Assembly (NCBI GenBank): GCA_031386065.1
Contig: JANNBZ010000184.1
Location: 1,155-65,154 of the forward strand
Length of the DNA stretch: 64,000 nucleotides
From: Burkholderiales bacterium
GTDB lineage: Bacteria > Pseudomonadota > Gammaproteobacteria > Burkholderiales > Burkholderiaceae_C
Direction of reading: 5' to 3'
The position numbers and the translations under genes were made by a program. The notes under the pieces were generated by a model that was given only the letters and a program-made list of their open reading frames with translations, searched no databases and was not told the origin of the DNA. Shown in pieces: positions 5,514 to 26,880 of this stretch (position 1 is the first letter of the stretch; the number at the start of each line of letters is the position of its first letter).

Positions 5514-8342
5514 TCAGGACGCCGCTGTCTGGGCGCGGCTGTCCAGCACCTGACGCACCCTGCGCGCCAACGCGTCGCGGGCGTAGGGCTTGGCCAGCAG
5601 TTCGACACCCGCGTCGAGTCGACCGTCGTGAACTATTGCGCTCTCTGAATACCCCGAGGTGAACAGCACCGCAACCTTCGGCAATGCCAGCCGCACCCGC
5701 GCTGCCAGTTCGGGGCTGCGCAGCGGGCCGGGCATCACCACATCGGTGAACAGCAGGTCGATGCGCGCGCCGCTTTCCACCATGCCCAGTGCGCTGGCCG
5801 CGTCGGGCGCCACCAGCACGCGGTAACCCAGTTCGCGAAGCATCTCGACCACGGTGCCGCGAACGCCCTCGTCGTCCTCGGCGACCAGGATCGTCTCGTT
5901 ACCGCCTTCAACCGGCCCGGCCGCAGCCGGCACCGTCGCAGCCTCGCTGCCCAGCGTGCGCGGCAGGTACAGCGTGATCGTGGTGCCGCGGCCGACCTCG
6001 CTGCGAATGGCCACGTGGCCGCCCGACTGTTTCACGAAACCGTAGACCATCGACAGGCCCAGCCCGGTGCCGCTGCCCACCGCCTTGGTCGAGAAAAACG
6101 GCTCGAAGGCCTGCGCCTGCACCTCGGCCGACATGCCGCAGCCGGTGTCGCTGACGGCCAGCAACACGTAGTCGCCCGGCGGCACCTCGGCGTGTTCGGC
6201 GGCGTTGGCCGATGCGACGCTGGCGTTGCTGACGGCGATGCTCAGTCGGCCGCCCGCGCCCATTGCATCGCGCGCGTTGAGGGCCAGGTTCAGCACCGCG
6301 TTCTCTATCTGCGCCGGGTCGACGAAGGTGTTCCACGGCGGGTGCGCAGCGCGGGTCTCGATCTGCACCGCCTCGCCCAGCGTGCGGTGCAGCATGTCGT
6401 CCAGCCCCGTCACCAGGCGGCCCAGGTCGACGACCTTCGGGTCGAGTGCCTGGCGGCGGCTGAAGGCCAGCAACTGCCCGGCCAGCTTGGCGCCGCGCTG
6501 CACGGCTGCCAGCGCCTTGGCCACGCGCTCGTCGATCTGCGAATGACCGTTGGCGAAGCGACCGATCAGGTGCAGGTTGCCTGCGATGACCTGCAGCAGG
6601 TTGTTGAAGTCGTGCGCCACACCACCGGTGAGCTGGCCGATGGCTTCCATTTTTTGCGACTGGCGCAACTGCGCTTCTGCGGCGCGGCGCTCGGTGATGT
6701 CCATCGCTTCGGGCACGATGGCGATGACCGCGCCGGCGCTGTCGAACACCGGGCGCATCGAGAAGTCGAAGTCACGCCGGCCGATCAGCAGGTTCAGCGA
6801 CACCTCCTGGCGCACCGTCTGCCCTGCGGCCGCCAGCGGAACCGCCGCTCGCACCAGCTCGGGCAATCCCGGCGTGTCAGTGAACCAGGGGGTGTCCCAG
6901 ATCGGCCAGCCGACGACTTCTTCGAGCTGAGCGCCGATGCTGGCGAGCGACGTGCGGTTCACGTCCAGCAACAGACCCTGCGGCGTCAGAAAGCCCTGGT
7001 AGGTGTAGCTGGTCTGGAAGATGGACCGCACGCGCGCTTCCGAGCGTTCCAGCGCGTCGATGCGCTCTTTCGCGGCCGTGACATCGCGGCCGACTGCCAC
7101 CATCAGTCCATTCCCCACCGCAGCCGACCAACTGATCCACACGTGGTGGCCCGCTCTGTGGCGGTATCTGTTTTCGAAGTACCAGAGCGGCTTGCCTTGC
7201 AGGACCGTTTGCGCTGCGCGATGGGTGCCCTCCAGATCGTCGGGGTGCACGAACTCGAACAAGGGGCGGCCGATCAACTCGGCCTCGCTCCAGCCCAGCG
7301 TGGCCGGCCAGGCCGGATTGATGGACATCATCACGCCGTCGAGGCCGGCCACCAGCATCAGGTCGGTCGACAACTGCCAGAGCCGGTTGCGGTCGGCGGT
7401 GCGCTCGCTCACCTGGTGCTCCAGCGTCTCGTTCAGCTTTGTCAGCGCCAGCGCGGCCCGGTGCGCCTCGGTGACGTCGAAACCGTGCGCTGCAATGCCG
7501 CTGACCTGTCCGTCGGGCTCGACCACGGCTTGATAGATGAAGTCGATGTAGGCCTTCTCGGGCGGGCGCTCGGGATCGCGTTGCAGCACGATCGACATGC
7601 CCCGGCCGACGAAGGGCTGACCGGTGGCGTACACCTGATCGAGAAGGTCGATGAAGCCTTGCCCTGCCACTTCGGGCAACGCGTCGACAACGCGGCTGCC
7701 GACCAATTGCCTGCGGCCGGTGAGGCGCTTGTAGGCCTCGTTGGCAAACTCGAACACATGCTCCGGCCCGCGCGCCACCGCAAAGAAGCCGGGCGCCTGC
7801 TCGAAAAACTGCGCCAGCTGCGACGCGACTCGCTGGCTGTGCGACAGCAGGCTCGCATCGCGGCGTTCCCGCGCGACCCGTTCGGTGGCCGGCGTCACTG
7901 TCACCAGCACGCCGCCGACGGAGCCGTCGTCGACCCGCATCGGCGCGTAGGCCACGGAAAAATAGTGGGCCTGCGAGGCGCCATCGACGTTCAGCACGTA
8001 CGACTGGTCTTCGAGCAGGGTGGCTTCGCCGGCCTGCATCGCGCGGCGGTAGATCGGCTGGTTGAAGTCCCACACTTCGGGCCAGCAGTCGCGGGTGGGC
8101 TGTCCCAGGGCCGCCGGGTCGCGCGTTTTAAGAATCTCGCGATAGGCGTCGTTGTAGATCTGCAGCAGGTCGGGCCCCCACAGAACGATCTGCGCCAGCG
8201 GGCAGTCGAGTGCCGCGCTGACGGCGCAGCGCAGCTCGGGCGGCCACAGCGTGCAGGCGCCAAGCGGCGTGGCACCCCAGTCCTTGTCGCGAATGGCCTG
8301 TGCCGCACGCGTGGTGTGGGTGGGCCAGGCGCGCGCGGTCAC
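5514..8342 (-). CDS. hybrid sensor histidine kinase/response regulator with multiple PAS domains
   Basis: Several PAS-like blocks, HisKA (GGVAHDFNNLL), HATPase (GTGLGLSMVYGFV), C-terminal REC (ILVAEDDEGVR...DVVMPG). In-frame GTG at 8342 overlaps the upstream TGA as GTGA. The longer ORF N-terminus is out-of-frame overlap with the REC gene. Confidence 0.8.
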   Translation of the reverse strand: MTARAWPTHTTRAAQAIRDKDWGATPLGACTLWPPELRCAVSAALDCPLAQIVLWGPDLLQIYNDAYREILKTRDPAALGQPTRDCWPEVWDFNQPIYRRAMQAGEATLLEDQSYVLNVDGASQAHYFSVAYAPMRVDDGSVGGVLVTVTPATERVARERRDASLLSHSQRVASQLAQFFEQAPGFFAVARGPEHVFEFANEAYKRLTGRRQLVGSRVVDALPEVAGQGFIDLLDQVYATGQPFVGRGMSIVLQRDPERPPEKAYIDFIYQAVVEPDGQVSGIAAHGFDVTEAHRAALALTKLNETLEHQVSERTADRNRLWQLSTDLMLVAGLDGVMMSINPAWPATLGWSEAELIGRPLFEFVHPDDLEGTHRAAQTVLQGKPLWYFENRYRHRAGHHVWISWSAAVGNGLMVAVGRDVTAAKERIDALERSEARVRSIFQTSYTYQGFLTPQGLLLDVNRTSLASIGAQLEEVVGWPIWDTPWFTDTPGLPELVRAAVPLAAAGQTVRQEVSLNLLIGRRDFDFSMRPVFDSAGAVIAIVPEAMDITERRAAEAQLRQSQKMEAIGQLTGGVAHDFNNLLQVIAGNLHLIGRFANGHSQIDERVAKALAAVQRGAKLAGQLLAFSRRQALDPKVVDLGRLVTGLDDMLHRTLGEAVQIETRAAHPPWNTFVDPAQIENAVLNLALNARDAMGAGGRLSIAVSNASVASANAAEHAEVPPGDYVLLAVSDTGCGMSAEVQAQAFEPFFSTKAVGSGTGLGLSMVYGFVKQSGGHVAIRSEVGRGTTITLYLPRTLGSEAATVPAAAGPVEGGNETILVAEDDEGVRGTVVEMLRELGYRVLVAPDAASALGMVESGARIDLLFTDVVMPGPLRSPELAARVRLALPKVAVLFTSGYSESAIVHDGRLDAGVELLAKPYARDALARRVRQVLDSRAQTAAS

Positions 8343-8764
8343 GGCGCGGGCCTTCGCAGCAGCTCGTCGGGTGGATTTTTCGGCGGGACGCCGGCCGTGA
8401 TCCAGGCCGACAGCACGGCCGGGTCGACCGGCTTCAACACATGCGAATCGAAGCCGGCCGCTTGCGCATGCGCCCAGTCGACGCCGCCACCGGTCAATGC
8501 GACCAGCCGTGCCTGCCGACCCCAGTCCTGCTGGCGAATGCGCCGCGCCACTTCGTAGCCATTGAGCCCCGGCATGCCGATGTCGAGCAACAACACCGGT
8601 GGCTGCTCGCGCGTGGCTTGCTCGATGGCGGACAGTCCGTCGTACGCCACGATCACTCGGTGGCCGTCGAGCTGAAGGCACAGCGCCAGCGTGTCGGCCG
8701 CGTCCCGGTTGTCGTCGGCGATCAGCACGCCGGCTCGCGGCTGTGCAGGCGGGGCGCGGTTCAC
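8339..8764 (-). CDS. single-domain (CheY-like) response regulator
   Basis: 141 aa from GTG 8764: VLIADDNRDAADTL...LLLDIGMPGLNGYEV...LKP. GTGA overlap with the upstream kinase stop. Confidence 0.8.
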   Translation of the reverse strand: MNRAPPAQPRAGVLIADDNRDAADTLALCLQLDGHRVIVAYDGLSAIEQATREQPPVLLLDIGMPGLNGYEVARRIRQQDWGRQARLVALTGGGVDWAHAQAAGFDSHVLKPVDPAVLSAWITAGVPPKNPPDELLRRPAP

Positions 8765-10650
8765 GCGTCCGCCCCGTTCACCGCGCCGCCGTCGGGCGGG
8801 CGACCCGGCTGGCGCAGCGGCTTGACGTAGAACGCATCGAAACCGGAGTCGAGCGCGCGGTCGCGGTCTTCGACCCGGCCGTGGCCGGTCAGGGCGACGA
8901 TGCGGGTCGGATGCCCGGCCAGGCTGTCGCGCAGGCTCTGCACCAGCTCGTAGCCGTCGACATCGGGCAGGCCGATGTCGCACACCACCAGGTCGGGCGC
9001 GAAGCTGGCCGCGATTCGCAGACCGTCGGCCGCGTTGCCGGCGGTCATCACCTCGTTGCCCGCCATCTCGATCAGCACACGCAGGCTGTCGCGCGCGTCG
9101 TCGTTGTCTTCGATGATCAGCACACGGCGGCCGGACACGCTTGAAAGGTCGGTGTCCGCAGCCTCGGCCGCCGCACCGGCGTCCGTGCCGGCAAGCAAGG
9201 GCAGCCGCAGCGTGGCCTGGCTGCCTCGGTTCACGCCGGCGCTGGCGATGTCCACGCTGCCGCCGTGCAGTTCGACCACGCGCCTGGCGATGGTCAGCCC
9301 GACGCCCAGGCCGCCCTGCTCGTGCCCGCCCGACGCGTCGCCCTGCACGAACAGGCCGAACACCTGCGGCAGCAACTCGGGCGCGATGCCGCGGCCGGCG
9401 TCGCGCACGTCGATCACCGCGCTGTCGCCGTCGAGCCGGCACGCCACCAGAATGCTGCTGCCGTCGGGTGAAAACTTGGCCGCGTTGCGCAGCAGGGCCG
9501 CCAGCGCCTGCGACAGGCGCTGCGCGTCGCCGTGGCAGCGCAGGCGGGTCGGATGGCGCGCGATGCGCACGAACTGGCCACGCTGTTCGGTCTCGCCCGC
9601 CACCTCGCCCACCGCGCTGTCGATCAGGTCGTCGATGTCCACGCTCTCGCGCTGCAAAACGATCTTGCCTTGGGTGATGCGGGTCACGTCGACCAGGTCG
9701 GTGATCAGGCGGCGCAGGTGGTCGACCTGGCGTTCGACGATCTCGCGCACCATGACCAGCCTGTCGTCGCCGCCTTCGAGCCGGCGCAGGATGGCGGCCG
9801 CGTTGGCGATGGGCGCCAGCGGGTTGCGCAATTCATGCGACAGCCGGGCCAGGAAGTCTTCGCGGCGGTGGCTGGCAAGGCGCAACGCGCGCGTGTGCGC
9901 CGCGAGCTGGTCTTCGAGCAGCTTGCGGTCGGTGATGTCCAGGCAACTGCCAACGTAGCCCAGGAACGCACCGTCGGCACCGAGGCGCGGCATGCCGGTG
10001 TCCATCACCCAGCGGAACGCGCCGTCGTGGCGCTGCAGCCGGTAGTCCATCGTGAACGCCTCGCGCTCCTGAAGGCTGTTGGCGATGATGCCGGCGCAGC
10101 GCTCGGTGTCTTCGGCGTGCACGCCCTGCATCCAGCCACCGCCGAGTTCCTGGCCCAGGCTGCGACCGCGAAACCCCAGCCACGACTTGTTGAACCAGTC
10201 GCGCGACAGGTCTTCGTCGGCCATCCACAGCAACACGGCCGCCGAGTCCGACGACGCCTTGGATCGGCTTTCGGCCTCTTGCGCCGCACGCGTGGCCTGC
10301 ACCGAGGCGGTCACATCGCGCAGCACCAGAAAGCAGTGCGCGGCCTCAGCTGTCGAGTGACCGGCGGGGAACAGGGTGGCGTCGACATGGTGCGAAGAGC
10401 CGCTGAGAGAACGCGCCCGCAGCCGGCGGGTCCAGCCGGGGTTGCGATGCTGCGGCTCCGCCGCAGGCGCGTGCCAGGCCAGGCCGGTCAGCTGGGCGAA
10501 CGACGGGTAGCGGCCGTCCACCGCCAACCAGGCCGCCGCGCAGTTCCCGCGCACCACCTCGCCTGCAGGGTCCAGCACCAGCACCGCGTTCGGGTGGTTG
10601 TCGAAAAACGCATGCGCGAGCGAGTCGCTCGACAGATTTGAAGTGGGCAT
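8761..10650 (-). CDS. hybrid sensor histidine kinase/response regulator (PAS-PAS-HisKA-HATPase-REC)
   Basis: HisKA H-box LSHELRNPLAPI, HATPase GGLGVGLTIARRVVELHGG, REC VLIIEDNDDARDSL...CDIGLPDVDGYEL. Start set at ATG 10650 (MPTSNLSS) to avoid overlap with the upstream CMD gene. Confidence 0.8.
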   Translation of the reverse strand: MPTSNLSSDSLAHAFFDNHPNAVLVLDPAGEVVRGNCAAAWLAVDGRYPSFAQLTGLAWHAPAAEPQHRNPGWTRRLRARSLSGSSHHVDATLFPAGHSTAEAAHCFLVLRDVTASVQATRAAQEAESRSKASSDSAAVLLWMADEDLSRDWFNKSWLGFRGRSLGQELGGGWMQGVHAEDTERCAGIIANSLQEREAFTMDYRLQRHDGAFRWVMDTGMPRLGADGAFLGYVGSCLDITDRKLLEDQLAAHTRALRLASHRREDFLARLSHELRNPLAPIANAAAILRRLEGGDDRLVMVREIVERQVDHLRRLITDLVDVTRITQGKIVLQRESVDIDDLIDSAVGEVAGETEQRGQFVRIARHPTRLRCHGDAQRLSQALAALLRNAAKFSPDGSSILVACRLDGDSAVIDVRDAGRGIAPELLPQVFGLFVQGDASGGHEQGGLGVGLTIARRVVELHGGSVDIASAGVNRGSQATLRLPLLAGTDAGAAAEAADTDLSSVSGRRVLIIEDNDDARDSLRVLIEMAGNEVMTAGNAADGLRIAASFAPDLVVCDIGLPDVDGYELVQSLRDSLAGHPTRIVALTGHGRVEDRDRALDSGFDAFYVKPLRQPGRPPDGGAVNGADA

Positions 10651-10787
10651 CGACCGCGACCAGTCTCGGAACAGGGGTTGGCCCGCGCTATCGGCGTGCC
10701 TCAGAAGCCAGTGTGAGCGGTCGCCACGGATGGCCGGCCAGACAGCGCCCCATCCCAACGTAGGCGAAGACCCCGCGCAGCGAACCG

Positions 10788-11315
10788 TCAGCTGGCCTCG
10801 ACCTCGATCTGCAGCGCTTCCAGAAAGCGCGACACCATGTTGTAAGCCGCCACCGTGGCGGTCAGCTCGACCACCTCGCGGTCGCTGAAGTGACGCCGCA
10901 GCGCGTCGAACACCGGCTGCGCCACCTGCACCTGCAGCGTCATCGCCTGCGCATAGGCCAGCACGTCGCGTTCGCGATCGCTGAAGGCGCTCGACGCGTG
11001 CCAATCGGCCAACGCATCGAGCTGGCCTTGCGACACGCCTTCAGCCAAGGCCACTGGCGCATGCTGCGCAAATTCGTACGGCGCGCGGTTCAGCAGCGCC
11101 ACCAGCAGGATCACCAGTTCGCGCAGTGCGCCATCAAGCACGCCGCCGGTGCGGATGGCACCGAGGTAAGCATTCCAGCCGCGCGCGATGGGTGCGCTGT
11201 GCAGCAGCTGCCGGTCCAGGTTCAGCAGCGTGCCGCCGCGCCGCGCCTGCACGGCATGCACCAGTTCCACATCCACACCTGCGGTGTGCGCGTCGACGAA
11301 GGGAAGGCGGGCCAT
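10788..11315 (-). CDS. carboxymuconolactone decarboxylase (AhpD-like) family protein
   Basis: 175 aa. Resembles the CMD/AhpD-like helical family (RELVILLVALLNRAPYEFAQH). Confidence 0.75.
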   Translation of the reverse strand: MARLPFVDAHTAGVDVELVHAVQARRGGTLLNLDRQLLHSAPIARGWNAYLGAIRTGGVLDGALRELVILLVALLNRAPYEFAQHAPVALAEGVSQGQLDALADWHASSAFSDRERDVLAYAQAMTLQVQVAQPVFDALRRHFSDREVVELTATVAAYNMVSRFLEALQIEVEAS

Positions 11316-14054: not shown

Positions 14055-15488
14055 ATGTACTCAGACGTGCAACTCTTCATCGACGGCGAATGGTGCCAAG
14101 GCACCGGCGGCAAGAGCGAAGCCATCGTCAACCCTGCGACGGGGCAGGTGATCGCGCGTCTGGCGCACGCCGACCGCAGCGACCTCGACCGCGCGCTGGC
14201 TGCGGCCGACAAGGGCTTCAAGCAATGGCGTGCGGTGTCGGCCTTCGAGCGCTACAAGCTGCTGCGCAAGGCGGGCGAGTTGATCCGCAGCCGGGCTGGC
14301 GAGATTGCCGAACTGATGACGCTGGAACAGGGCAAGCCGCTGGCCGAGGCGAAGGCCGAGACGATGGCGGCCGGCGACATCATGGACTGGTTCGCCGAGG
14401 AAGCGCGCCGCACCTACGGCCGCGTGGTGCCGGCGCGTGCCGACGGCGTCAGCCAGTTGGTGATCAAGGAGCCGGTGGGTCCGGTGGCCGCGTTCACGCC
14501 GTGGAATTTCCCCATCAACCAGGCGGTGCGCAAGCTGTCGGCGGCGCTGGCGGCGGGTTGCTCGGTGATCCTGAAGGGGCCTGAAGAAACGCCGGCCAGT
14601 TGCGCGGCGCTGGTGCGCGTGTTCGCCGATGCCGGTGTGCCGGCGGGCGCCATCAACCTGGTGTTCGGCGTGCCGGCGGACATCTCGGCCTACCTGATTG
14701 CGCACCCGGTCATTCGCAAGATCACTTTCACCGGCTCCACCGCCGTGGGCAAGAAGCTGGCGGCGCTGGCCGGCGAGCACATGAAGCGGGTCACGATGGA
14801 ACTCGGCGGGCACGCGCCGGCCATCGTGTTCGGCGACGCCGATGTCGACAGCGCCGCGCGCATGTTGGCCGGCGCCAAGTTCCGCAACGCGGGCCAGGTG
14901 TGCGTGGCACCCACGCGCTTTCTGGTGCACGAGTCGGTCTACCCGCGCTTCGTCGACAGCTTTGTCGCAGCGGCGTCGGCCATCAAGGTCGGCAGTGGCA
15001 TGGACAAGGAGACCCGCATGGGCCCGCTCGCCAACAGCCGGCGTGTCGAGGCGATGGAGATGTTCGTGGCCGACGCAGTCGGCAAGGGCGCGAAGCTGTT
15101 GCTGGGCGGCAAGCGCATCGGCAGCGAGGGCTACTTTTTCGAGCCGACGGTGTTGACCGAGGTGCCGATGAGCGCGCGCATCATGCAGGAAGAACCGTTC
15201 GGACCGATCGCGCCGATCACGTCGTTCAAGGACTTCGACGAGGTGGTGGCCGAGGCGAACCGGCTGCCTTACGGGCTGGCCGCGTATGCGTTCACCAAGT
15301 CATTGAAAACCGCCTCGGCCATTGGCGCGGCGTTCGAGAGCGGCATGGTGTCGATCAACCATTTCGGGCTGGCCCTGCCCGAGGTGCCGTTCGGCGGCGT
15401 GAAGGATTCGGGCTACGGCTCCGAAGGCGGCACCGAAGCCATCGAGGCCTACCTGAACACCAAGTTCATCACGCAGGTGGGCTTGTAG
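14055..15488 (+). CDS. NAD(P)-dependent aldehyde dehydrogenase (succinate-semialdehyde-DH-like)
   Basis: [27 protein letters not shown] (catalytic Cys), EEPFGPI. Start at [13 protein letters not shown]. Confidence 0.9.
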
Positions 15489-16962
15489 CTTGACGTGAGC
15501 CAGCGGCGCGCACCACGGTGACGGTGCACGCCGACTCGGCCACCACGCGGGCCGAGACACTGCCCAGGTAGCGCCGCAGCACCGAGTTGCTGCGCGCGCC
15601 CATCACGATGTGGTCGACCTGGTTCTTGCGCGCGTAGTCGACGATGGCGGCGGCGGCGTCGGGCGCTTCGATCACGTGGAAGGTCACGCGCGCGTCCTGC
15701 TGCAACTTGCTCAGCGCCAGCGTGTTCACCACCGGCCGCGCCCAGTGCTTCAGTTGGACCAGCAGGTTCACGTGCTTGCTGCTGCCGTCTTTTTCCATCG
15801 GCACGTCGATGGCGATGCGCTGCGTCTTCATCACCGCCAGGCAGGCCAGCCGCGCGCCGGGCTCGGTTTGCAGCACGCGCTGCACGCTGGCGCGCACCGC
15901 GTCGAGCAGCGCAGCTTCGGAGCCGCCGATGTCCAGCGCCGCCAGCACGATGGGGTTGTCGCTGGCTGGCGATCCGCTGGGCGCGCCGCCGCGCGGCTCG
16001 GCACCGAGTGCGGCAAACCAGCGCCGCACCACGCGAAACAGGCCGCTGCGCTGCGAGCGCTCGGCGCGGGCGGTCAGCGTGACCTGTTCCGGGTGCTGCA
16101 GGTCGAACGCCAACTGCGCCGCGCTCTGGTGGCGCCGTTCGGGCTTCACGTCCAGGCAGCGCAGGATGATTTCCTGCAGCCACGGCGGACAGTCGGCGCG
16201 CAGCGCGCGCGGCGGAACCGGGTCGCGGTACAGCCGCTCGCGCAGCCCGCGCACGCTGGCGGGTGCGCCGAACGGACGTGCGCCGGTGGTCAGGTGGTAC
16301 AGCATGACGCCGAGCGCGAACAGGTCGCTGCGCGGATCGCTGCGAACGAACTGAATCTGCTCGGGCGACATGTAGGGGCTGGTGCCCATCGGCAGCTCGA
16401 ATTCTTCTTCCAGCAGGTCGGGCAGCTGGTCGTGGCGCGACAGGCCGAAGTCGATCAGCACCGCCTCGCCACGCTCACCGTCCAGACCTGCGCGGAACAG
16501 GATGTTGCTGGGCTTCACGTCGAGGTGAACCACATGCTGCCGGTGCAGGTCGTGCAGCGCGGTGGCGACTCGGTGGCCGATGTCCACCACCTCGGCAATG
16601 GCCAGCGGGGCGGCATCGAAGCGCGCCTTCAGCGACTCGCCGGGAATGCGCTCCATCACGATGTAGGGCTGTGCCGTGAAGTCGCCCTTGGCGACGAAGG
16701 CCGGCACGTGCGGGCCGGCGAGCATCGGCATGATCATCTGCTCGACCTCGAAGCCGACGATGGTGGTCGGGTCGTCGCCACCGCGCAGGCGCGGCACCTT
16801 CATGATCAGCGGACGCGCCTCAACGCTGTCGATGTGCGTGACGCGCCACAGGTTTGCCATGCCGCCCTGGTGGGTGCGCTCTTCCAGGCGAAACCCATCG
16901 ATGACCTGGCCGGCAGCCAACGGGCTTCTGGGCGTGCGGGCAGGCGATGGCTCAGACGCCAT
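15469..16962 (-). CDS. Ser/Thr protein kinase fused to a C-terminal universal stress protein (USP) domain
   Basis: Hanks kinase motifs ([25 protein letters not shown]). The C-terminal ~150 aa is USP-like ([21 protein letters not shown]...[19 protein letters not shown]). Confidence 0.85.
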
Positions 16963-20571: not shown

Positions 20572-20880
20572 TCAGGCCGCGGCAGACGTTGCGAGCGCCT
20601 TGATCTTGGCCGACAGGCGGCTCTTGTGGCGAGCGGCCTTGTTCTTGTGGAACAGGCCCTTGTCGGCCACGGAGTCGATCACGCTTTGCGCGGTGGCGTA
20701 CAGCTCGGCGGCCTTGGCCTTGTCACCGGTCAGCACGGCTTTCTGCACGTTCTTGACGACGGTGCGGAACTTGGAACGAAGGGCGGTGTTGGCCGCGTTC
20801 AGCTTCACGTCTTGGCGCACGCGCTTAAGGCCCGATGCAATGCGGACTGTCTTTTTCTTGGCTTTAGCGGAGGTTGCCAT
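20572..20880 (-). CDS. rpsT: 30S ribosomal protein S20
   Basis: [40 protein letters not shown]... is unmistakably S20. Confidence 0.95.
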
Positions 20881-20945: not shown

Positions 20946-21038
20946 CCCCAGGACGGGAAGAGCAAGAGCAAGCCGTCGATCTGTGCTGCGTTCACGGCGC
21001 GTGCCCGACTCTATGCAGATCGATTGGCAGAGGTCCTC

Positions 21039-21671
21039 CTAGCCCCGCCCTCTTCCTCGCGCCGCCGCACCGATGGCGAACAGGCCGGCCAGGACGAGCG
21101 CGTAGGTTGCCGGTTCCGGGACCATCGTTACGTCACATCCGCCGCCGCCATTACCGACAGCGACGCAGGCACCCGCGTAGTTCAACCGGAGCGACTCACC
21201 GTTTCGACCGACCACATTGCGTTGGAAGATCGAATCAGGCCCAAAGTCAAGATGCGTCACACCATTTGCAACAGCGGTGAAGGTGAGATCGAAGAGGAGG
21301 AACGGATCGTTCGTTTGTAGAGCGCTGAGGTCAGTATCGCTGGTTAGCAGTGAATAGATCACGACACCTCGATTACCCGAATCGAACGATGAATCCAACA
21401 CTCCATCAGTTCCTCCGAACTGCGTTTTCGATTCGAAAGAGACGATCCCTGCGGTACTCAGGATGGTTGAGTTGAACAAAACGTTCAGATCCAGCGCCGA
21501 GACAATCTCATTGATGGAATGCAGTCCGCTGATGCTTACACTAACCTTGACGGAATCTCCAACCGCGACGCTTTGCTGCGTTGGCGTCATGTAGAGAAGC
21601 GGCACAGCGAGAGACGCTCCCGGCAGCAGTGTAACGAGGGCTAGGCCGATAGTTGCCAAGAGCTTATTCAT
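21039..21671 (-). CDS. cohesin-like domain protein with PEP-CTERM sorting signal
   Basis: Signal peptide, then a cohesin-like opening (TPTQQSVAVGDSVKVSVSISGL...ALDLNVLFNSTIL...FDLTFTAVANGVTHLDF). C-terminus VPEPATYALVLAGLFAIGAAARGRGRG has the form PEP motif + TM + basic tail. Confidence 0.7.
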   Translation of the reverse strand: MNKLLATIGLALVTLLPGASLAVPLLYMTPTQQSVAVGDSVKVSVSISGLHSINEIVSALDLNVLFNSTILSTAGIVSFESKTQFGGTDGVLDSSFDSGNRGVVIYSLLTSDTDLSALQTNDPFLLFDLTFTAVANGVTHLDFGPDSIFQRNVVGRNGESLRLNYAGACVAVGNGGGGCDVTMVPEPATYALVLAGLFAIGAAARGRGRG

Positions 21672-21717
21672 AACGTTATCTCCGTGGTGAGATCAGAAAT
21701 TCGAAACCGCAACCGCT

Positions 21718-23508
21718 TTATTGAGCACAGTTTGGCCGCGTGCATTGAAGGGTGCACTTTCGTACGTCATTTATGGTGATCCTTCCGTCGCCGTCTGCGT
21801 CACGCGGATCGTTGGCGACCGGGATTTGCCCAATGCCAGCGCGGACAAGAGCGATATCTAGAGAGTCCACATCACCATCACCATCGATATTGCAAGTGAT
21901 CGCCGCCTTGCTACTGACTGTCAGGTCGAACAATAGAGGCGACTGGCCGTCCGTGGTCGCGTTCAAGCGAGTCAAAATCTGAATGAAGCGTCCTGAGGCT
22001 GCAAAGTCGACACCTTTACTCACGGTTTGATAGCTTTGAAGGGGCAAAGATGCTTGCGTGTCGGCAGCACGAACCTGAACGATAACTGTTGCACCCTGCG
22101 GAACAAGGTCGTTCCAGTTGACCTTCCCCCATGCTGTTCCGTTAGCGCCTCCGTCTAGGCTCGCGGTCCACGTACCAGTGTTGTTGGTCGCGTTGCGCGC
22201 TGCGAACCCAGCAGCATCGCTGTAAGTGTATGGCATATTACCGACTGGGAATACACCGAGCGGCGATCCGTCCGAACCTCTGTACTTTTGCATGCGTCCA
22301 GCGCTAGCGAATCCGATCTGCCAAACATCGTTATTCGAATCGACTTGTATTCCGATTGCGCTTGTGCCGCCAGCCTGGAGCGGAGCTTGCCACAAGAGTG
22401 TCCCGGTTGGACTGACTTTGCGGATACTTGACTGCCCGCCGATAATGTTTCCGGAACCATCAACCACGATACCCGAAGTCCCCACATTTAAATTGACAAT
22501 TGGGCTGAATGTGTTAGTTACCGGATCGAATTCGATATTTGCAGAGCCAAGATAAACTTTATTATTACCGAGGGCAATTCCGTAGTTGAAACTGCTATTG
22601 TATGCCGAAACAATGTATGGGCCGGTATTGCTTGCTGTATTCGTGATCTTTCCCAAGGTCCCACCGAGGGATGCACTCCATAAGACGCCTTTATTATCAA
22701 TTAAACAGCCGTAAGGCGTCCATTGGTTTCCGGGCTGCCCGGCGGAAGGCGTAGTGCTGATGGGGCCTGCAATTTGACTGCCGTCGGCCGCACTGATCTT
22801 GTAGTATGTCCGCTCGTTGTACATGCCTACCCATAGATTACCATCAGTTCCGACGCAGAGCGAACGACCTAAACCGTTCTGTGATCCAACTTCGGCTACC
22901 CATGCGATACGTTCGTCAGTTATTTCATTTGCATCGATTTTTCCATTACCGTTAAGGTCTGCCATCGGCTTGATTTCGCCCGCGTCAATTACGCCGTTTC
23001 CATTCGTATCTTCAGACGTGTCCATGACGCCATTTCCGTTGCGATCAATGAAGCCCTCGGTGAGAACTTTGATCAGCACAGGTTTTACATTAGCGAACCA
23101 GCGATTCAAAATGTACGCGTTGCCCTGGATATCGACTGCAGTACGTGATGGCGCCGGCCCGGCGTAGGCGTTGTTCAAGTGATTCACATACCCGGCTTGA
23201 CCGCTCGGCCCGAACCAGGTGCGATACCGCGCGAGTTCCTTGTTGTTGACAGTATCGAACTTGGATAGTGAGTCTTCGCCGGCGTTGGCAATCCACATCA
23301 CTGGAAAGGTGGTCCCAATAGTATTGAGTTGCAATTGGTTGTGAACGGTATCGAAGTTCACGCCGGAAAGAGCTCCGAGAGCGAAGTCGGCATCGAGCGT
23401 GTATGTCTTCGATGCTGCGAGCGTAGCGGTGGGTATCACAGCGGCGACCGAAGCGAGCGCTAAAAGGCTGTTTTGGCTTACTTTCGACAGATTCCAGGTG
23501 CTTGCCAT
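21718..23508 (-). CDS. secreted beta-propeller-like protein with internal Ca-loop triplet and C-terminal dockerin-like module
   Basis: Signal peptide; repeated ...DGNLWV/...GVLWSA/...NDVWQ strand motifs; DRNGNGVMD, DTNGNGVID and DLNGNGKID. C-terminus is DGDGDVDSLDIALVRAGIG...DADGDGRITINDVRKC, i.e. two EF-hand-like dockerin repeats. Confidence 0.65.
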   Translation of the reverse strand: MASTWNLSKVSQNSLLALASVAAVIPTATLAASKTYTLDADFALGALSGVNFDTVHNQLQLNTIGTTFPVMWIANAGEDSLSKFDTVNNKELARYRTWFGPSGQAGYVNHLNNAYAGPAPSRTAVDIQGNAYILNRWFANVKPVLIKVLTEGFIDRNGNGVMDTSEDTNGNGVIDAGEIKPMADLNGNGKIDANEITDERIAWVAEVGSQNGLGRSLCVGTDGNLWVGMYNERTYYKISAADGSQIAGPISTTPSAGQPGNQWTPYGCLIDNKGVLWSASLGGTLGKITNTASNTGPYIVSAYNSSFNYGIALGNNKVYLGSANIEFDPVTNTFSPIVNLNVGTSGIVVDGSGNIIGGQSSIRKVSPTGTLLWQAPLQAGGTSAIGIQVDSNNDVWQIGFASAGRMQKYRGSDGSPLGVFPVGNMPYTYSDAAGFAARNATNNTGTWTASLDGGANGTAWGKVNWNDLVPQGATVIVQVRAADTQASLPLQSYQTVSKGVDFAASGRFIQILTRLNATTDGQSPLLFDLTVSSKAAITCNIDGDGDVDSLDIALVRAGIGQIPVANDPRDADGDGRITINDVRKCTLQCTRPNCAQ

Positions 23509-23568
23509 GATGTTGACTCCGTAATAGTCGCGCCACCCGGGCGCCGGTTGCTGGTCGAGCCGAACGAA

Positions 23569-24618
23569 CTAACGCTTCGCGAGGGGTCGCGATGCCGGCT
23601 CCATGTCGTGCGAGGTATTGCTGCTTATGCGGGCGGTTTCGCCGCTGGAAATATAGACCCGGAATAGCTGCGAGGTTCCGGTCTGTAAACTGTCGAACAC
23701 GATACTTTTGCCGTCTGCCGACCACTGCGGGTCAAATTCCTCATAGGGAGTTCTTGTCAGATTTCGGATATTGCTTCCGTCGACGGCGATCAAAAATATA
23801 TCGTTACGAGACCGCAGAGGGTCGTCGCGGTTACTGGCAGCGACGATTTGTTTGCCGTCGGGCGACCAGCGAGGCGACTCATACGAGGCCGCCTCGTCCA
23901 ACGTCAGGATTTGCGACTCACCAGTCTCGACGTTCGCAAGGACAACAGGTTTGGTCACCCGCAGGTCAGCCACGTATGCGACGCGTTTGCCATCGGGCGA
24001 AATCGATGCCCACGCCTTGTCGCGGGCAGCGAACTTTCCGCTGATGTCGTGCAGAGCGCTGCCATCGCGATTGACGACCCATACCTGGGCTTTGTCTTTG
24101 TCGTCGCGTCCCATGAATGCAAGGCGACTTCCGTCGGCAGACCAAGCTGGCGGTTGCGTTCCTTTGTCCTTGCCGTTGCCAACCACGGAAACACTCTTTC
24201 CACTTGCTATTTCCGTGATGCGCATTTCCATTGCGCCCGATTCGATCACAGTCGAAAAGAACGCTACCGATTTGCCATCAGGCGACCACGAGGCAGAGCC
24301 TTCAATGCGATCATCCTGTGTCAAACGCCGCTGACCGCTTCCATCGTCATTCATAAGATAGATGCGCGGCAGCCCATTGCGCGACGAGGTGAAGGCCAGT
24401 CGTCCATCGACGGACCACGCTGGCTGCGTGTTAATGCTCTTGCCTTGCGTAAGTACGCGGTCGACGCCATCACGGTTGGAATAGATGTGCGCATCTCCGC
24501 TTCGTATCGAAACGAAAACTATGTCCGCTGCGGAGGCCGAAAGGGTATTGTCTGCACGAATCCCCTGCATCGCAAATGCAGCGCAAGCTACGAAGGCTGA
24601 GGCAATAATACGGGTCAT
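23569..24618 (-). CDS. TolB-like PD40/WD40-like beta-propeller repeat protein (secreted)
   Basis: Signal peptide MTRIIASAFVACAAFA. Repeated WSPDGK/WSADG/SPDGKRVAY PD40 motifs. ATG 24618 preferred over GTG 24630. Confidence 0.75.
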   Translation of the reverse strand: MTRIIASAFVACAAFAMQGIRADNTLSASAADIVFVSIRSGDAHIYSNRDGVDRVLTQGKSINTQPAWSVDGRLAFTSSRNGLPRIYLMNDDGSGQRRLTQDDRIEGSASWSPDGKSVAFFSTVIESGAMEMRITEIASGKSVSVVGNGKDKGTQPPAWSADGSRLAFMGRDDKDKAQVWVVNRDGSALHDISGKFAARDKAWASISPDGKRVAYVADLRVTKPVVLANVETGESQILTLDEAASYESPRWSPDGKQIVAASNRDDPLRSRNDIFLIAVDGSNIRNLTRTPYEEFDPQWSADGKSIVFDSLQTGTSQLFRVYISSGETARISSNTSHDMEPASRPLAKR

Positions 24619-24629
24619 GGCGGTTTGCA

Positions 24630-24986
24630 CTAAGGCACCGAATTGATATTCACCATAGACAATTCCTTGCCGGAGCTGTCGAGAATTCTCAGTTGGTATA
24701 TGCCGGGTGAGTTTGACTTGAGCTTGTACTTAAGTGTGCCGTCGCTGGAAACCATGACTCCATAGTGCGCCTCGGCCCCCTGAGGCGTGGTCACTGCGAC
24801 GGTGACTGACGTGTTGGGCGTCAACCCGGTGGCTTTAAAAACTCCTGCTGACGCGACAGTTAGGATTGATGGCCCCGAAAGCGACGGATTGCCAGCCATT
24901 GCCTGAGGGACGAGCATTGCCGATGCAACCAGCGCCAAGAGACGTGACGCGATGCCAATGGCGGTTTTTGAGTAGAAGTTGAACAT
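24630..24986 (-). CDS. small secreted protein, probably Ig-like beta-sandwich (hypothetical)
   Basis: 118 aa. Signal peptide ending QAMA-G, beta-rich T/V/S sequence, AGGAGA RBS 6-7 nt upstream of the ATG. No family recognised. Confidence 0.5.
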   Translation of the reverse strand: MFNFYSKTAIGIASRLLALVASAMLVPQAMAGNPSLSGPSILTVASAGVFKATGLTPNTSVTVAVTTPQGAEAHYGVMVSSDGTLKYKLKSNSPGIYQLRILDSSGKELSMVNINSVP

Positions 24987-25323
24987 GCCGTCTCTCCTAG
25001 GTCAGGGGGTAGGTCTGCGCCAGCGACGTTGCCGACACGTTTGGAACAAGGTGGGCCACGATGCCCGTAAGGCTGCGTTGGTCTACTTCGCTGCGGTGGC
25101 GATTGACTACGACTTCGCGCACTCGACAAACTGATTCAATGGAACAAAATGTAGATTCGTTCGCAGGTCTTGACTTGTGTTGTTCTAGGGGTTCCCCCAA
25201 AACATAGGGGGGTGATACGGGTTTGCCCCGTGTCCCAAGTGCTGCGCCGTCATCTGGCCGATGATTTATATAATTGATTGTTCGGCCCGTCGTCCGCCAC
25301 GCCGACCCCTGTTCCCGTCCCCC

Positions 25324-26880
25324 ATGAACCTGCTGCGGACCGCCTCCACCATTTCCTTGTTCACCCTCGCATCGCGCGTGTCGGGGCTGGTGCGCGACAC
25401 GCTGCTGGCCGCAGCATTCGGTGCGGGCGCCTGGATGGACGCTTACCAGGTGGCGTTTCGCATCCCTAACCTGCTGCGAAGGATGTTCGCCGAGGGCGCG
25501 TTTTCGCAGGCCTTCGTGCCCATCCTGTCCGAAACCCGGGCCCGTGAAGGTGAAGAGATCACCCGCCGCCTGATCGATGCGGTGGCCACGGTGCTGACCT
25601 GGGCGCTGTGCCTGACCTGCGTGGTGGGCATCGTGGCGGCACCTCTGATCGTCTGGTTGATGGCCTCGGGCCTGGAGCGATTCGACGCGGCAGTGTTGAT
25701 GACGCGCTGGATGCTGCCCTACATCGGCTTCATGTCCCTGGTGTCCCTGTCGTCGGCCATTCTGAACACCTGGAAGCGGTTTGCCGTGCCGGCCGCCACA
25801 CCCGTGTTGCTGAACCTGGCGGTGATCGGCGCCACCGTGTGGCTTGCGCCGACGTTCAAACGGCACGGCATCGAGCCGATCTACGCGCTGGCGGTAGGCG
25901 TGCTGATCGGCGGCGTGTTGCAGCTTGCGGTGCAGGTGCCGGCCTTGATGCGCATCGGCGGCCTGCCTCGCATCGGCATCACGCCGGCCAGCGTCGGGCG
26001 GGCCTGGAACCACCCCGGCGTGGGTCGCGTGCTGGGCAGGATGGCGCCGGCCTTGCTGGGGGTTTCGGTGGCCTACCTGTCGCAGCTGATCAACACCCAG
26101 TTGGCATCGCGCATCGGTGTCGGGGCGGTGTCGTGGCTCACCTATGCCGACCGCTTGATGGAGTTTCCGACCGGCCTGCTCGGTGTGGCGCTTGGCGTGG
26201 TCTTGCTGCCGCAATTGGCGGCGGCCAAGGCGCTGGACGATTCCGACGCGTACTCGGGTTTGATCGACTGGGGCCTGCGCCTGGTGCTGCTGCTGGCGCT
26301 GCCCTGCGCGGTGGCGCTGGTCGTGTTCCCCACGCCGATGGTGGCCACCCTGTTTCACCACGGCGCATTCACCGACACCGACGTTACGCAGACGGTTCGC
26401 GCGCTGATGGGTTACGGCGTCGGCCTGATGGGGCTGATCGGCGTCAAGATTTTGGCGCCCGCGTTTTATGCGCGACACGACATTCGCACCCCGGTCAAGG
26501 TGGCCATCGTCGTGCTGGTGCTGACGCAGTTGCTCAACGTGGTGTTCGTGCCGCGCCTGGGCCACGCGGGGCTGGCCTTGTCGATCGGCGTCGGCGCGCT
26601 GGTCAACGCGATGTGGTTGTTCATCGGCCTGCGCCGCAGCGGAACTTACCGGCCTGTCGCAGGATGGGGCCGCTTCACTTTGAAGGTGTGCGTGGCCTGC
26701 ATTGCGTTGGGCGCCGGCCTGGCCTGGGCCGCGCAAGCCGTCGACTGGCTGGCCCTGGGAAATCAAAAGTGGACCCGTGCCGGCCTGCTGGCCGCTGGCC
26801 TGGGGTCGGCTGCGTTGCTGTACCTGGGCTTGCTCGCCGCGATGGGACTGCGGCCGCGCCAGTTCATGCGCCGGGGATAA
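25324..26880 (+). CDS. murJ: lipid II flippase MurJ (MviN)
   Basis: MNLLRTASTISLFTLASRVSGLVRDTLLAAAFGAG...AFRIPNLLRRMFAEGAFSQAFVPIL is the canonical MurJ N-terminus. Polytopic membrane protein. Confidence 0.9.
   Translation: MNLLRTASTISLFTLASRVSGLVRDTLLAAAFGAGAWMDAYQVAFRIPNLLRRMFAEGAFSQAFVPILSETRAREGEEITRRLIDAVATVLTWALCLTCVVGIVAAPLIVWLMASGLERFDAAVLMTRWMLPYIGFMSLVSLSSAILNTWKRFAVPAATPVLLNLAVIGATVWLAPTFKRHGIEPIYALAVGVLIGGVLQLAVQVPALMRIGGLPRIGITPASVGRAWNHPGVGRVLGRMAPALLGVSVAYLSQLINTQLASRIGVGAVSWLTYADRLMEFPTGLLGVALGVVLLPQLAAAKALDDSDAYSGLIDWGLRLVLLLALPCAVALVVFPTPMVATLFHHGAFTDTDVTQTVRALMGYGVGLMGLIGVKILAPAFYARHDIRTPVKVAIVVLVLTQLLNVVFVPRLGHAGLALSIGVGALVNAMWLFIGLRRSGTYRPVAGWGRFTLKVCVACIALGAGLAWAAQAVDWLALGNQKWTRAGLLAAGLGSAALLYLGLLAAMGLRPRQFMRRG

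Follow-up and report, generated by a model that had tools for sequence, protein, structure and literature searches.

A candidate non-cellulosomal dockerin-cohesin pair with a PEP-CTERM sorting tail in a four-gene cassette of a Burkholderiales bacterium

The anchors of cellulosomes are held in Gram-positive walls by S-layer homology (SLH) modules or by LPXTG signals and sortase, recruit multi-cohesin scaffoldins and display carbohydrate-active enzymes (CAZymes). The closest known relatives of the proteins described here are non-cellulosomal, namely a cohesin of Archaeoglobus fulgidus (2xdh) and the glycosidase and toxin cohesins (2jh2, 2vo8, 2w1n) and dockerin (2jnk/2ozn) of Clostridium perfringens. 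Cohesin and dockerin modules outside cellulosomes have already been reported in all three domains of life, their function being given as unknown (PMC5244752, citing Peer et al. 2009). PEP-CTERM proteins are found in species that also have EpsH (Haft et al. 2006, PMC1569441), and their genes are usually single-gene operons located behind sigma-54 sites and without recognisable domains (PMC1569441). Here we analyse a 64,000-nucleotide stretch from the genome of an uncultured Burkholderiales bacterium (assembly GCA_031386065.1, contig JANNBZ010000184.1, positions 1,155 to 65,154; hereafter the window), in which a 596-residue protein ending in a dockerin module is encoded directly upstream of a 210-residue protein with a cohesin fold and a PEP-CTERM tail. 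The two are probably a matched non-cellulosomal dockerin-cohesin pair, in which the dockerin would plug into the cohesin and the PEP-CTERM tail would lead to exosortase anchoring, with the cohesin protein as adaptor.

Both genes lie on the minus strand where a preliminary description of this DNA had placed them, the first at 21718..23508 and the second at 21039..21671; they are adjacent, with 46 nucleotides between them and a GGAG Shine-Dalgarno sequence ahead of each. The 210-residue protein starts with a signal peptide (residues 1-22, ...GASLA/VPL, 21606..21671, minus strand; helix 4-14 in the model), followed by a beta-sandwich (residues 24-172, 21156..21602, minus strand) with conserved Cys169 and Cys179. 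We built an AlphaFold2 (AF2) model of this protein with 19 homologues and searched it against the PDB using Foldseek. The core of the model has a predicted local distance difference test (pLDDT) score of 85-94, and every one of the best 45 matches was a cohesin, types I, II and III being represented, with E-values down to 1.7e-8 and target-normalised template-modelling (TM) scores of 0.66-0.79; they include those from C. perfringens and Archaeoglobus, which are non-cellulosomal. The predicted structure agrees with the nine-stranded jelly-roll beta-sandwich of some 140-170 residues that characterises cohesins, and we regard a cohesin fold as well supported by the model. Pfam Cohesin (PF00963) matched 7 of the 19 family members at E<=0.01 (best 4.3e-6), a precomputed PF00963 match exists for one homologue, and full-length profiles searched against the PDB by sequence gave weak matches only (E ~0.1-0.3). 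An exhaustive profile search with a limit of E<=1e-30 placed 111 representative clusters in the anchor family. The strand motif P-x-x-Q-S-V-x-V-G-D, which had been quoted as the opening of a cohesin-like domain, also aligns with antibody light chains and immunoglobulin (Ig)-like repeats and is therefore not diagnostic of cohesins by itself; the cohesin-like assignment holds by fold and not by this motif.

The 596-residue protein (AF2 model, mean pLDDT 77.4), which we refer to as the cargo, ends in a dockerin module (residues 539-596, 21721..21894, minus strand; Dockerin_1 at 541-582) composed of two tandem repeats of calcium loop and helix (540-559 and 570-586), the arrangement that, in segments of ~22 residues with a 12-residue EF-hand-like loop in each, defines type I dockerins. 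The loops N540-D551 and D570-D581 carry D or N at positions 1, 3, 5 and 12, with position 9 being D, or T in the second loop, and the model predicts helices after them at residues 549-558 and 579-586. Loop residues, helices and family profile thereby bear out the two EF-hand-like C-terminal repeats (540-559 and 570-585) that had been read as a dockerin signature. The Asp columns and four cysteines (Cys 539, 585, 589 and 594) are conserved across homologues. Clostridial dockerins lack these four conserved cysteines, which we infer to form two disulfides, suiting the oxidising periplasm or the exterior. Dockerin_1 matched 30 of 51 cargo homologues (best 4e-9). When a profile of the dockerin alone was searched against the PDB, solved dockerins were reached at 2e-7 to 1e-4 (C. 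thermocellum 1ohz_B 2e-7, 2ccl_B 1e-6, 4fl4_A 9e-6, 2y3n_B 2e-5; C. perfringens 2jnk 4e-5), and calmodulins came later, at ~1e-3. The window's own proteins score just below the Pfam cut-offs, and it is the family-level profiles and predicted structure that settle both assignments. A chance resemblance, with neither module a true cohesin or dockerin, would fit the marginal Pfam E-values of ~1e-3 and an N-terminal strand motif that Ig domains match as well; set against the fold search, the family-level hidden Markov model (HMM) matches, the dockerin profile search of the PDB and the conserved synteny described below, it is barely credible.

At its C terminus the 210-residue protein carries the PEP-CTERM sorting signal that had been recognised earlier (residues 184-210, 21042..21122, minus strand), consisting of VPEP, a transmembrane helix and RGRGRG, and scores 17.4 bits with TIGR02595 (cut-off 16). 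Pfam PEP-CTERM (PF07589) gave 20.1 bits against a cut-off of 20.7, with matches in 19/19 family members, and P185, E186 and P187 are invariant. The protein has the complete anatomy of a PEP-CTERM substrate, with a signal peptide at its N terminus, and PEP motif, helix and basic cluster at its C terminus. Profile HMM searches had been named in the preliminary description as a check: on the window proteins TIGR02595 passes and Cohesin, Dockerin_1 and PF07589 stay below gathering, and at family level matches were obtained. The anchor tail varies with host lineage and the ectodomain is kept: most Betaproteobacteria have VPEP, Rheinheimera has IPAP or VPAP, Glaciecola has SAP, and a single Rhodocyclaceae genome has VPLPG. 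The deviant tails occur at L002:9863-10462, L013-L020, L030, L070:8738-9361, L074, L075 and L045:8825-9415 (L-numbers denote the loci surveyed) and take the forms IPAP/VPAP-STLWL...RRF in Rheinheimera, SAPATL...KRR in Glaciecola and Paraglaciecola, and VPLPG in Rhodocyclaceae. None of the three that were scanned (Rheinheimera L002, Paraglaciecola L070 and Rhodocyclaceae L045) matched an NCBIfam sorting model. These tails may be undescribed exosortase-signal variants.

We then counted how often dockerin and partner gene occur together. The cargo-side synteny count drew on 79 genome loci plus earlier loci and covered homologues with readable flanks, the L040 fragment being left out; five weak 'cohesin' matches were counted as belonging to a second partner family, which we call ALT, and L061 and L079 were counted as having cohesin genes. 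An adjacent gene for a partner with a signal peptide and a PEP-CTERM-type tail was present for 64/64 dockerin-bearing homologues (52 cohesin-like, 12 ALT) and for 0/10 dockerin-less homologues (archaea, Chloroflexi, Armatimonadota, Planctomycetes, Verrucomicrobia and one Deltaproteobacterium), these being raw counts, uncorrected for phylogeny. For the anchor-side search, metagenomes were scanned with a closer subset of the anchor alignment, which yielded 19 loci, one of them (L092) without upstream sequence. The gene upstream of the cohesin protein encoded this dockerin at all 18 loci with upstream sequence; 17 of these proteins belong to the cargo family, and the one at L106 has a different body. 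This 566-residue protein (L106:609-2309, with the partner at 2384-2542) has only Ig-like domain matches in its body, the same cysteine-stapled dockerin and then a PEP-CTERM-like tail (PPEPEP...LLRRRR), and its gene lies directly upstream of a cohesin-like gene truncated by the contig end.

ALT is a family of PEP-CTERM proteins of 245-270 residues that replaces the cohesin-like gene directly after the cargo gene in 12 loci (L023, L026, L036, L037, L043, L044, L048, L053 (L053:4303-5115), L055, L056, L069 and L080). Its motif reads GGSITAGDKLFDNW ... NIDVTPLNDGG.DPGPGL ... KNILVWA ... FEQRFSQ-VPEP, and nothing besides the tail matched in Pfam or the PDB. The possibility that ALT is a divergent cohesin was rejected, as hhalign of the two partner alignments aligned the PEP-CTERM tail only. 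ALT loci are always paired with a distinct dockerin subtype, LISRARGQ / ITPNDVKVCIPKC, as opposed to LIRAGIGQ / ITINDVRACTLKC in the cohesin type, and the two subtypes are told apart at repeat positions 10, 17 and 18, which are the canonical recognition positions. Partner type requires 8 switches (bootstrap 7-9) when mapped on a tree of the body, propeller plus sandwich, compared with 1 (1-5) when mapped on that of the dockerin. Over sliding windows of 40 columns the switch count was 7-10 up to residues 506-546, 3 at 516-556 and 1 at 547-596, and because the count collapses at this point, the exchanged unit begins at the dockerin boundary. Mean body identity is 56.5% within and 53.8% between partner types, the corresponding dockerin values being 70.8% and 49.6%. 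In Thauera, for example, the body shares 79% identity with that of a cohesin-partnered Rheinheimera protein, whereas the dockerin shares 47% with the one from that protein and 81% with ALT-partnered dockerins. Across 53 cohesin pairs, divergence of the anchor tracks that of the dockerin more than body divergence accounts for (partial Mantel r=0.62, p<=5e-4). It is tempting to speculate that dockerin and PEP-CTERM partner could be an exchangeable plug-and-socket module swapped at least ~7 times between lineages, and that ALT could be a second dockerin-receptor class, not recognisable as a cohesin, within a system of adaptors for exosortase anchoring that has spread horizontally; we put this forward tentatively.

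For the pair in the window we propose that Sec would export both the 596- and the 210-residue proteins, and that the C-terminal dockerin of the propeller protein, probably calcium-binding and disulfide-stapled, would bind the single cohesin of the 210-residue protein non-covalently and presumably in a calcium-dependent manner. The PEP-CTERM tail would pass the 210-residue protein to the exosortase pathway, and exosortase would put the complex in the cell envelope or the exopolysaccharide (EPS) matrix, the destinations of such proteins in other organisms. As the dockerin in this proposal binds the cohesin and the PEP-CTERM tail enters the exosortase route, the cohesin protein would be a dedicated adaptor giving a tail-less cargo exosortase-dependent anchoring. 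The interpretation offered in the preliminary description, a cohesin-dockerin surface-tethering pair, is supported as a candidate: of the computational checks named there, all those that could be carried out gave favourable results.

A first alternative is co-inheritance without interaction. The dockerin-like tail would then be a calcium-binding, disulfide-stapled stabilising or ligand-binding module, and the cohesin-fold PEP-CTERM protein an independent, co-transcribed component of the matrix or an adhesin. The sub-threshold single-sequence HMM scores are compatible with such a scenario, DNA adjacency alone can account for the joint exchange of dockerin and partner gene, PEP-CTERM proteins are able to act alone in floc formation (PMC9850573), and PMC5244752 gives no established function for cohesin and dockerin modules outside cellulosomes. 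What makes it unlikely in our view is the perfect presence/absence link (64/64 vs 0/10), together with a breakpoint that falls at the module boundary and not elsewhere in the last third of the gene, subtype differences at canonical recognition positions, and a reverse search from the anchor that always recovers the dockerin.

A second alternative accepts that the modules bind and differs in the fate of the complex: the 210-residue protein would be a transient export carrier or a periplasmic tether, holding the cargo at the inner membrane via its uncleaved tail, or piggy-backing it through exosortase/EPS export and then releasing it. Judged from the sequences, Sec brings both proteins to the periplasm, where the PEP-CTERM helix would tether the cohesin domain before processing, and the companion TolB-like PD40 propeller of the cassette is a typically periplasmic fold. 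To our knowledge, there is no biochemical proof of the fate of PEP-CTERM proteins after exosortase action, which counts in favour of a carrier or tether. The sorting system itself was presented as a hypothesis (PMC1569441). In contrast, the exosortase substrates studied so far reach the exterior or the matrix (PMC12188702, PMC9850573), and an archaeal cargo homologue is directly surface-anchored via a PEF-CTERM signal; we consider a carrier or tether role improbable. The archaeal protein, from Methanobacteriota (L071), is without a dockerin and has PKD-like repeats followed by its own PEF-CTERM (TIGR03024, 33.3 bits against a cut-off of 23). Another cassette, at L077, lies 4.5 kb from the prsT gene of an XrtA system (TIGR02917, 388.9 bits). 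Both the PEF-CTERM homologue and the prsT proximity agree with an anchoring role, each as a single case.

Several observations weigh against the adaptor proposal. On the window proteins themselves, Pfam Cohesin reaches E=1.5e-3 and 19.2 bits against a gathering threshold of 24.1, over residues 31-85 only of the 210-residue protein, and Dockerin_1 (PF00404) reaches E=1e-3 and 19.6 bits against 22.9. No exosortase was found among the six largest multi-transmembrane open reading frames (ORFs) of the window, nor is MurJ one; the earlier statement that the window holds no exosortase gene is borne out for the multi-transmembrane ORFs scanned. A search for the PrsR-type sigma-54 consensus came up empty both in the region upstream of the cassette (24987-25260) and in the spacer ahead of the cohesin gene, PrsR-type matches in the window being fewer than in shuffled sequence, and the cohesin PEP-CTERM gene is the last of a cassette, unlike the usual single-gene operons. 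A dockerin receptor need not be a cohesin, because ALT occupies 12 loci without detectable similarity to the cohesin-like family. Moreover, because the dockerin sequence adjoins the partner gene, block recombination at the 3' end of the DNA contributes to the tree, identity and Mantel signals whether the proteins are in contact or not, and could yield both the co-segregation and the Mantel signal without any such contact; that the breakpoint is sharp and coincides with the module boundary speaks against pure block recombination but does not exclude it. Finally, the proposal gives no account of the passage of the complex through the outer membrane.

The 596- and 210-residue proteins are the products of the last two genes, the 3' half, of four co-directional cassette genes. 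The two-gene pair of the preliminary description is thus real, but it is half of a conserved four-gene cassette that is widespread and not peculiar to this genome. The first gene (24630..24986, minus strand; called as an ORF) encodes a secreted 118-residue small protein consisting of a signal peptide and a domain of ~90 residues, the latter possibly Ig-like; a weak match to BiPBP_C (E=0.2) is its sole Pfam trace, and an orthologue stands at the equivalent position in most proteobacterial loci. The second (23569..24630, minus strand) encodes a secreted 353-residue PD40 (TolB-like) beta-propeller with six repeats (PF07676, E=1.2e-36) that is syntenic in most loci. Identity of this protein with TolB was rejected on a TIGR02800 score of 174.9 bits against the equivalog cut-off of 343.15.

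All four genes lie in a low-GC island (21000..25250) between rpsT (20572-20880, minus strand) and murJ (25261-26880, plus strand). Island GC is 47-60% vs 65-70% in the flanks, and GC at third codon positions (GC3) is 0.56-0.65 in the cassette genes compared with 0.83-0.92 in host genes. A search around the island for tRNA genes, Rfam matches and flanking direct repeats found none. We take the four-gene island to be horizontally acquired and the cassette to be mobile. A sister assembly, GCA_031364445.1, has the same cassette arrangement. In this assembly, which belongs to the window's own species, PD40 is called at 181 residues only (L086:2395-2940) and a gap of ~500 nucleotides follows the small gene, which points either to a frameshifted gene or pseudogene or to a difference in assembly. 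Elsewhere in the window, 5514-11004 and 15469-16962 (both minus strand) hold two adjacent PAS-rich hybrid histidine kinases and a Ser/Thr-kinase-Usp fusion, upstream in the window; their GC3 is host-like, and as ordinary genes of the host they show no connection with the island.

As for the remainder of the cargo, a signal peptide (residues 1-32, ...ATLAA/SKTY, 23413..23508, minus strand; helix 5-21 in the model) precedes a beta-propeller body (residues 69-430, 22219..23304, minus strand; pLDDT 85-97) of the NHL, PknD-sensor or Vgb-lyase type. Foldseek matches of the propeller were PknD (1rwl), Vgb lyase (2z2p), TRIM-NHL and YncE, with target-normalised TM scores of 0.6-0.68, and weak Pfam Reg_prop, Vgb_lyase and SGL matches occur in cargo family members; neither the sequence profiles nor the fold matches give a specific enzyme assignment. 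The propeller contains an Asp/Asn-rich EF-hand-like insert (residues 150-200, DRNGNGVMDTSEDTNGNGVIDAGE...DLNGNGKIDANE, 22909..23061, minus strand; EF-hand_1 at 182-196, E=1.1e-4), in which D155, N157, N159, D184, N186 and N188 are invariant. Between propeller and dockerin the model places the strands of a beta-sandwich (residues 444-533, 21910..22179, minus strand; pLDDT 63-86). Two segments with many invariant residues, 33-68 (window 23305-23412; SKTYTLDADF...QLQLN..GTTFP) and 426-438 (PYTYSDAAGFAARN), are wholly or largely of low model confidence and might fold only against a partner, for example the PD40 or the small protein.

The cargo family comprises more than 900 homologues, 60-84% identical among the matches listed, and the gene pair recurs across dozens of genomes of beta- and gammaproteobacteria in unrelated contexts, which answers the question of co-occurrence raised in the preliminary description. 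The order small protein, PD40, cargo, anchor is found in Inhella, Roseateles/Paucibacter, Rubrivivax, Aquabacterium, Rheinheimera, Alkalimonas and Arsukibacterium. Zoogloeaceae have the four-gene order with cohesin-like anchors, and Thauera, Zoogloea and Accumulibacter have it with the ALT partner. More distant cargo homologues with an adjacent cohesin-like anchor gene are present in Glaciecola and Paraglaciecola, where a divergent PD40 gene lies further upstream and the small gene is mostly missing, in Marinobacter, where the anchor gene is upstream, and in Acidobacteria. The flanks of the cassette are unrelated between lineages; apart from within-genus synteny we found no conserved neighbours outside the four genes, and no consistently nearby exosortase or EPS genes.

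Duplications and variant C termini were also seen among the surveyed loci. Inhella carries PD40, cargo and anchor genes twice in tandem after a single small gene (L001:2587-10448; L008 is identical), and Paucibacter sp. PLA-PC-4 has two full four-gene cassettes in tandem (L033:949-9384). Two tandem cargo paralogues of an unclassified bacterium (L085:4615-8347) have no anchor gene nearby; the first has just one dockerin-like repeat, a degenerate one (CDVNTSLDVLADDALRTLLFAIG), at its end, and the second reaches the contig end just past the beta-sandwich. The dockerin-less cargo homologues (L071:6896-8896, L047, L060, L064, L066, L068, L076, L082 and L083) have other C-terminal modules instead, and in the dockerin-less Chloroflexi and Deltaproteobacterium the cargo gene still adjoins the PD40 propeller gene.

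The cassette ties non-cellulosomal cohesin and dockerin modules to PEP-CTERM proteins, the purposes of both being mostly unclear. Within the library that we searched, no paper was found that joins PEP-CTERM with cohesin or dockerin, and the one paper that has exosortase, cohesin and dockerin, on anaerobic methanotrophic (ANME) archaea, does not link them. If the reading of dockerin and partner as an exchangeable module is true, tail-less secreted proteins would gain exosortase-dependent anchoring via a dedicated non-covalent adaptor, and ALT would be a previously unknown dockerin-receptor class. The cassette offers a simple, genetically hard-wired pair of one cohesin and one dockerin in cultivable aerobic Gram-negatives (Rheinheimera, Paucibacter/Roseateles, Rubrivivax and Alkalimonas). 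Its two dockerin subtypes are naturally exchanged and have a partner each, which provides a ready comparison of specificity and possibly orthogonal surface-display parts for Gram-negative hosts. The cassette also draws attention to a large two-propeller protein system that is unannotated and highly conserved across bacterial classes.

Compared with known systems, the arrangement is nearest to the non-cellulosomal pairs, in which a single cohesin and a single dockerin likewise sit on separate secreted proteins that are not cellulolytic; non-cellulosomal structures rank among the top matches by fold and profile, with non-cellulosomal cohesins at Foldseek ranks 5, 6, 9 and 16. Unlike those pairs, the one described here has a PEP-CTERM/exosortase tail on the cohesin, four conserved dockerin cysteines and an NHL-type propeller as cargo, its genes are adjacent and hard-wired in a mobile four-gene cassette of Gram-negative aerobes, and there is exchange with a non-cohesin partner. 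With the anchoring scaffoldins of cellulosomes (C. thermocellum OlpA, OlpC and SdbA, and R. flavefaciens ScaE) it would share an envelope-fixed cohesin that captures a dockerin protein, and the OlpA (3ul4) and OlpC (4dh2) cohesins are among the fold matches of the 210-residue model. In contrast to these anchors there is no multi-cohesin scaffoldin, and anchoring would run through exosortase. No glycoside hydrolase or carbohydrate-binding module was matched by Pfam or NCBIfam in any of the four cassette proteins, and carbohydrate-related names appeared only as secondary or weak Pfam matches on the PD40 propeller. The minimal cellulosome-like architecture suggested in the preliminary description does not stand: as the locus has a single cohesin and a single dockerin, an NHL-type propeller for cargo and no such hydrolase or binding-module match in Pfam or NCBIfam, it is not a cellulosome, and we rejected that reading.

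The propeller of the cargo (residues 69-430) is similar in fold to the six- to seven-bladed NHL-repeat, Vgb-lyase and PknD-sensor propellers. It differs from these in having no significant sequence membership, and the Asp/Asn-rich insert, the C-terminal sandwich and the dockerin are specific to the cargo family. Like substrates of XrtA/EpsH, such as the floc protein PepA, the 210-residue protein has a signal peptide and, at its C terminus, a PEP motif with transmembrane helix and basic cluster, and, as in PEP-CTERM systems, carriers of the cassette are found among EPS- and floc-forming Burkholderiales and Rhodocyclales (PMC1569441, PMC9850573). Unlike a typical PEP-CTERM gene, the one described here encodes a cohesin fold, is the last gene of its cassette and apparently supplies an adaptor for a second protein.

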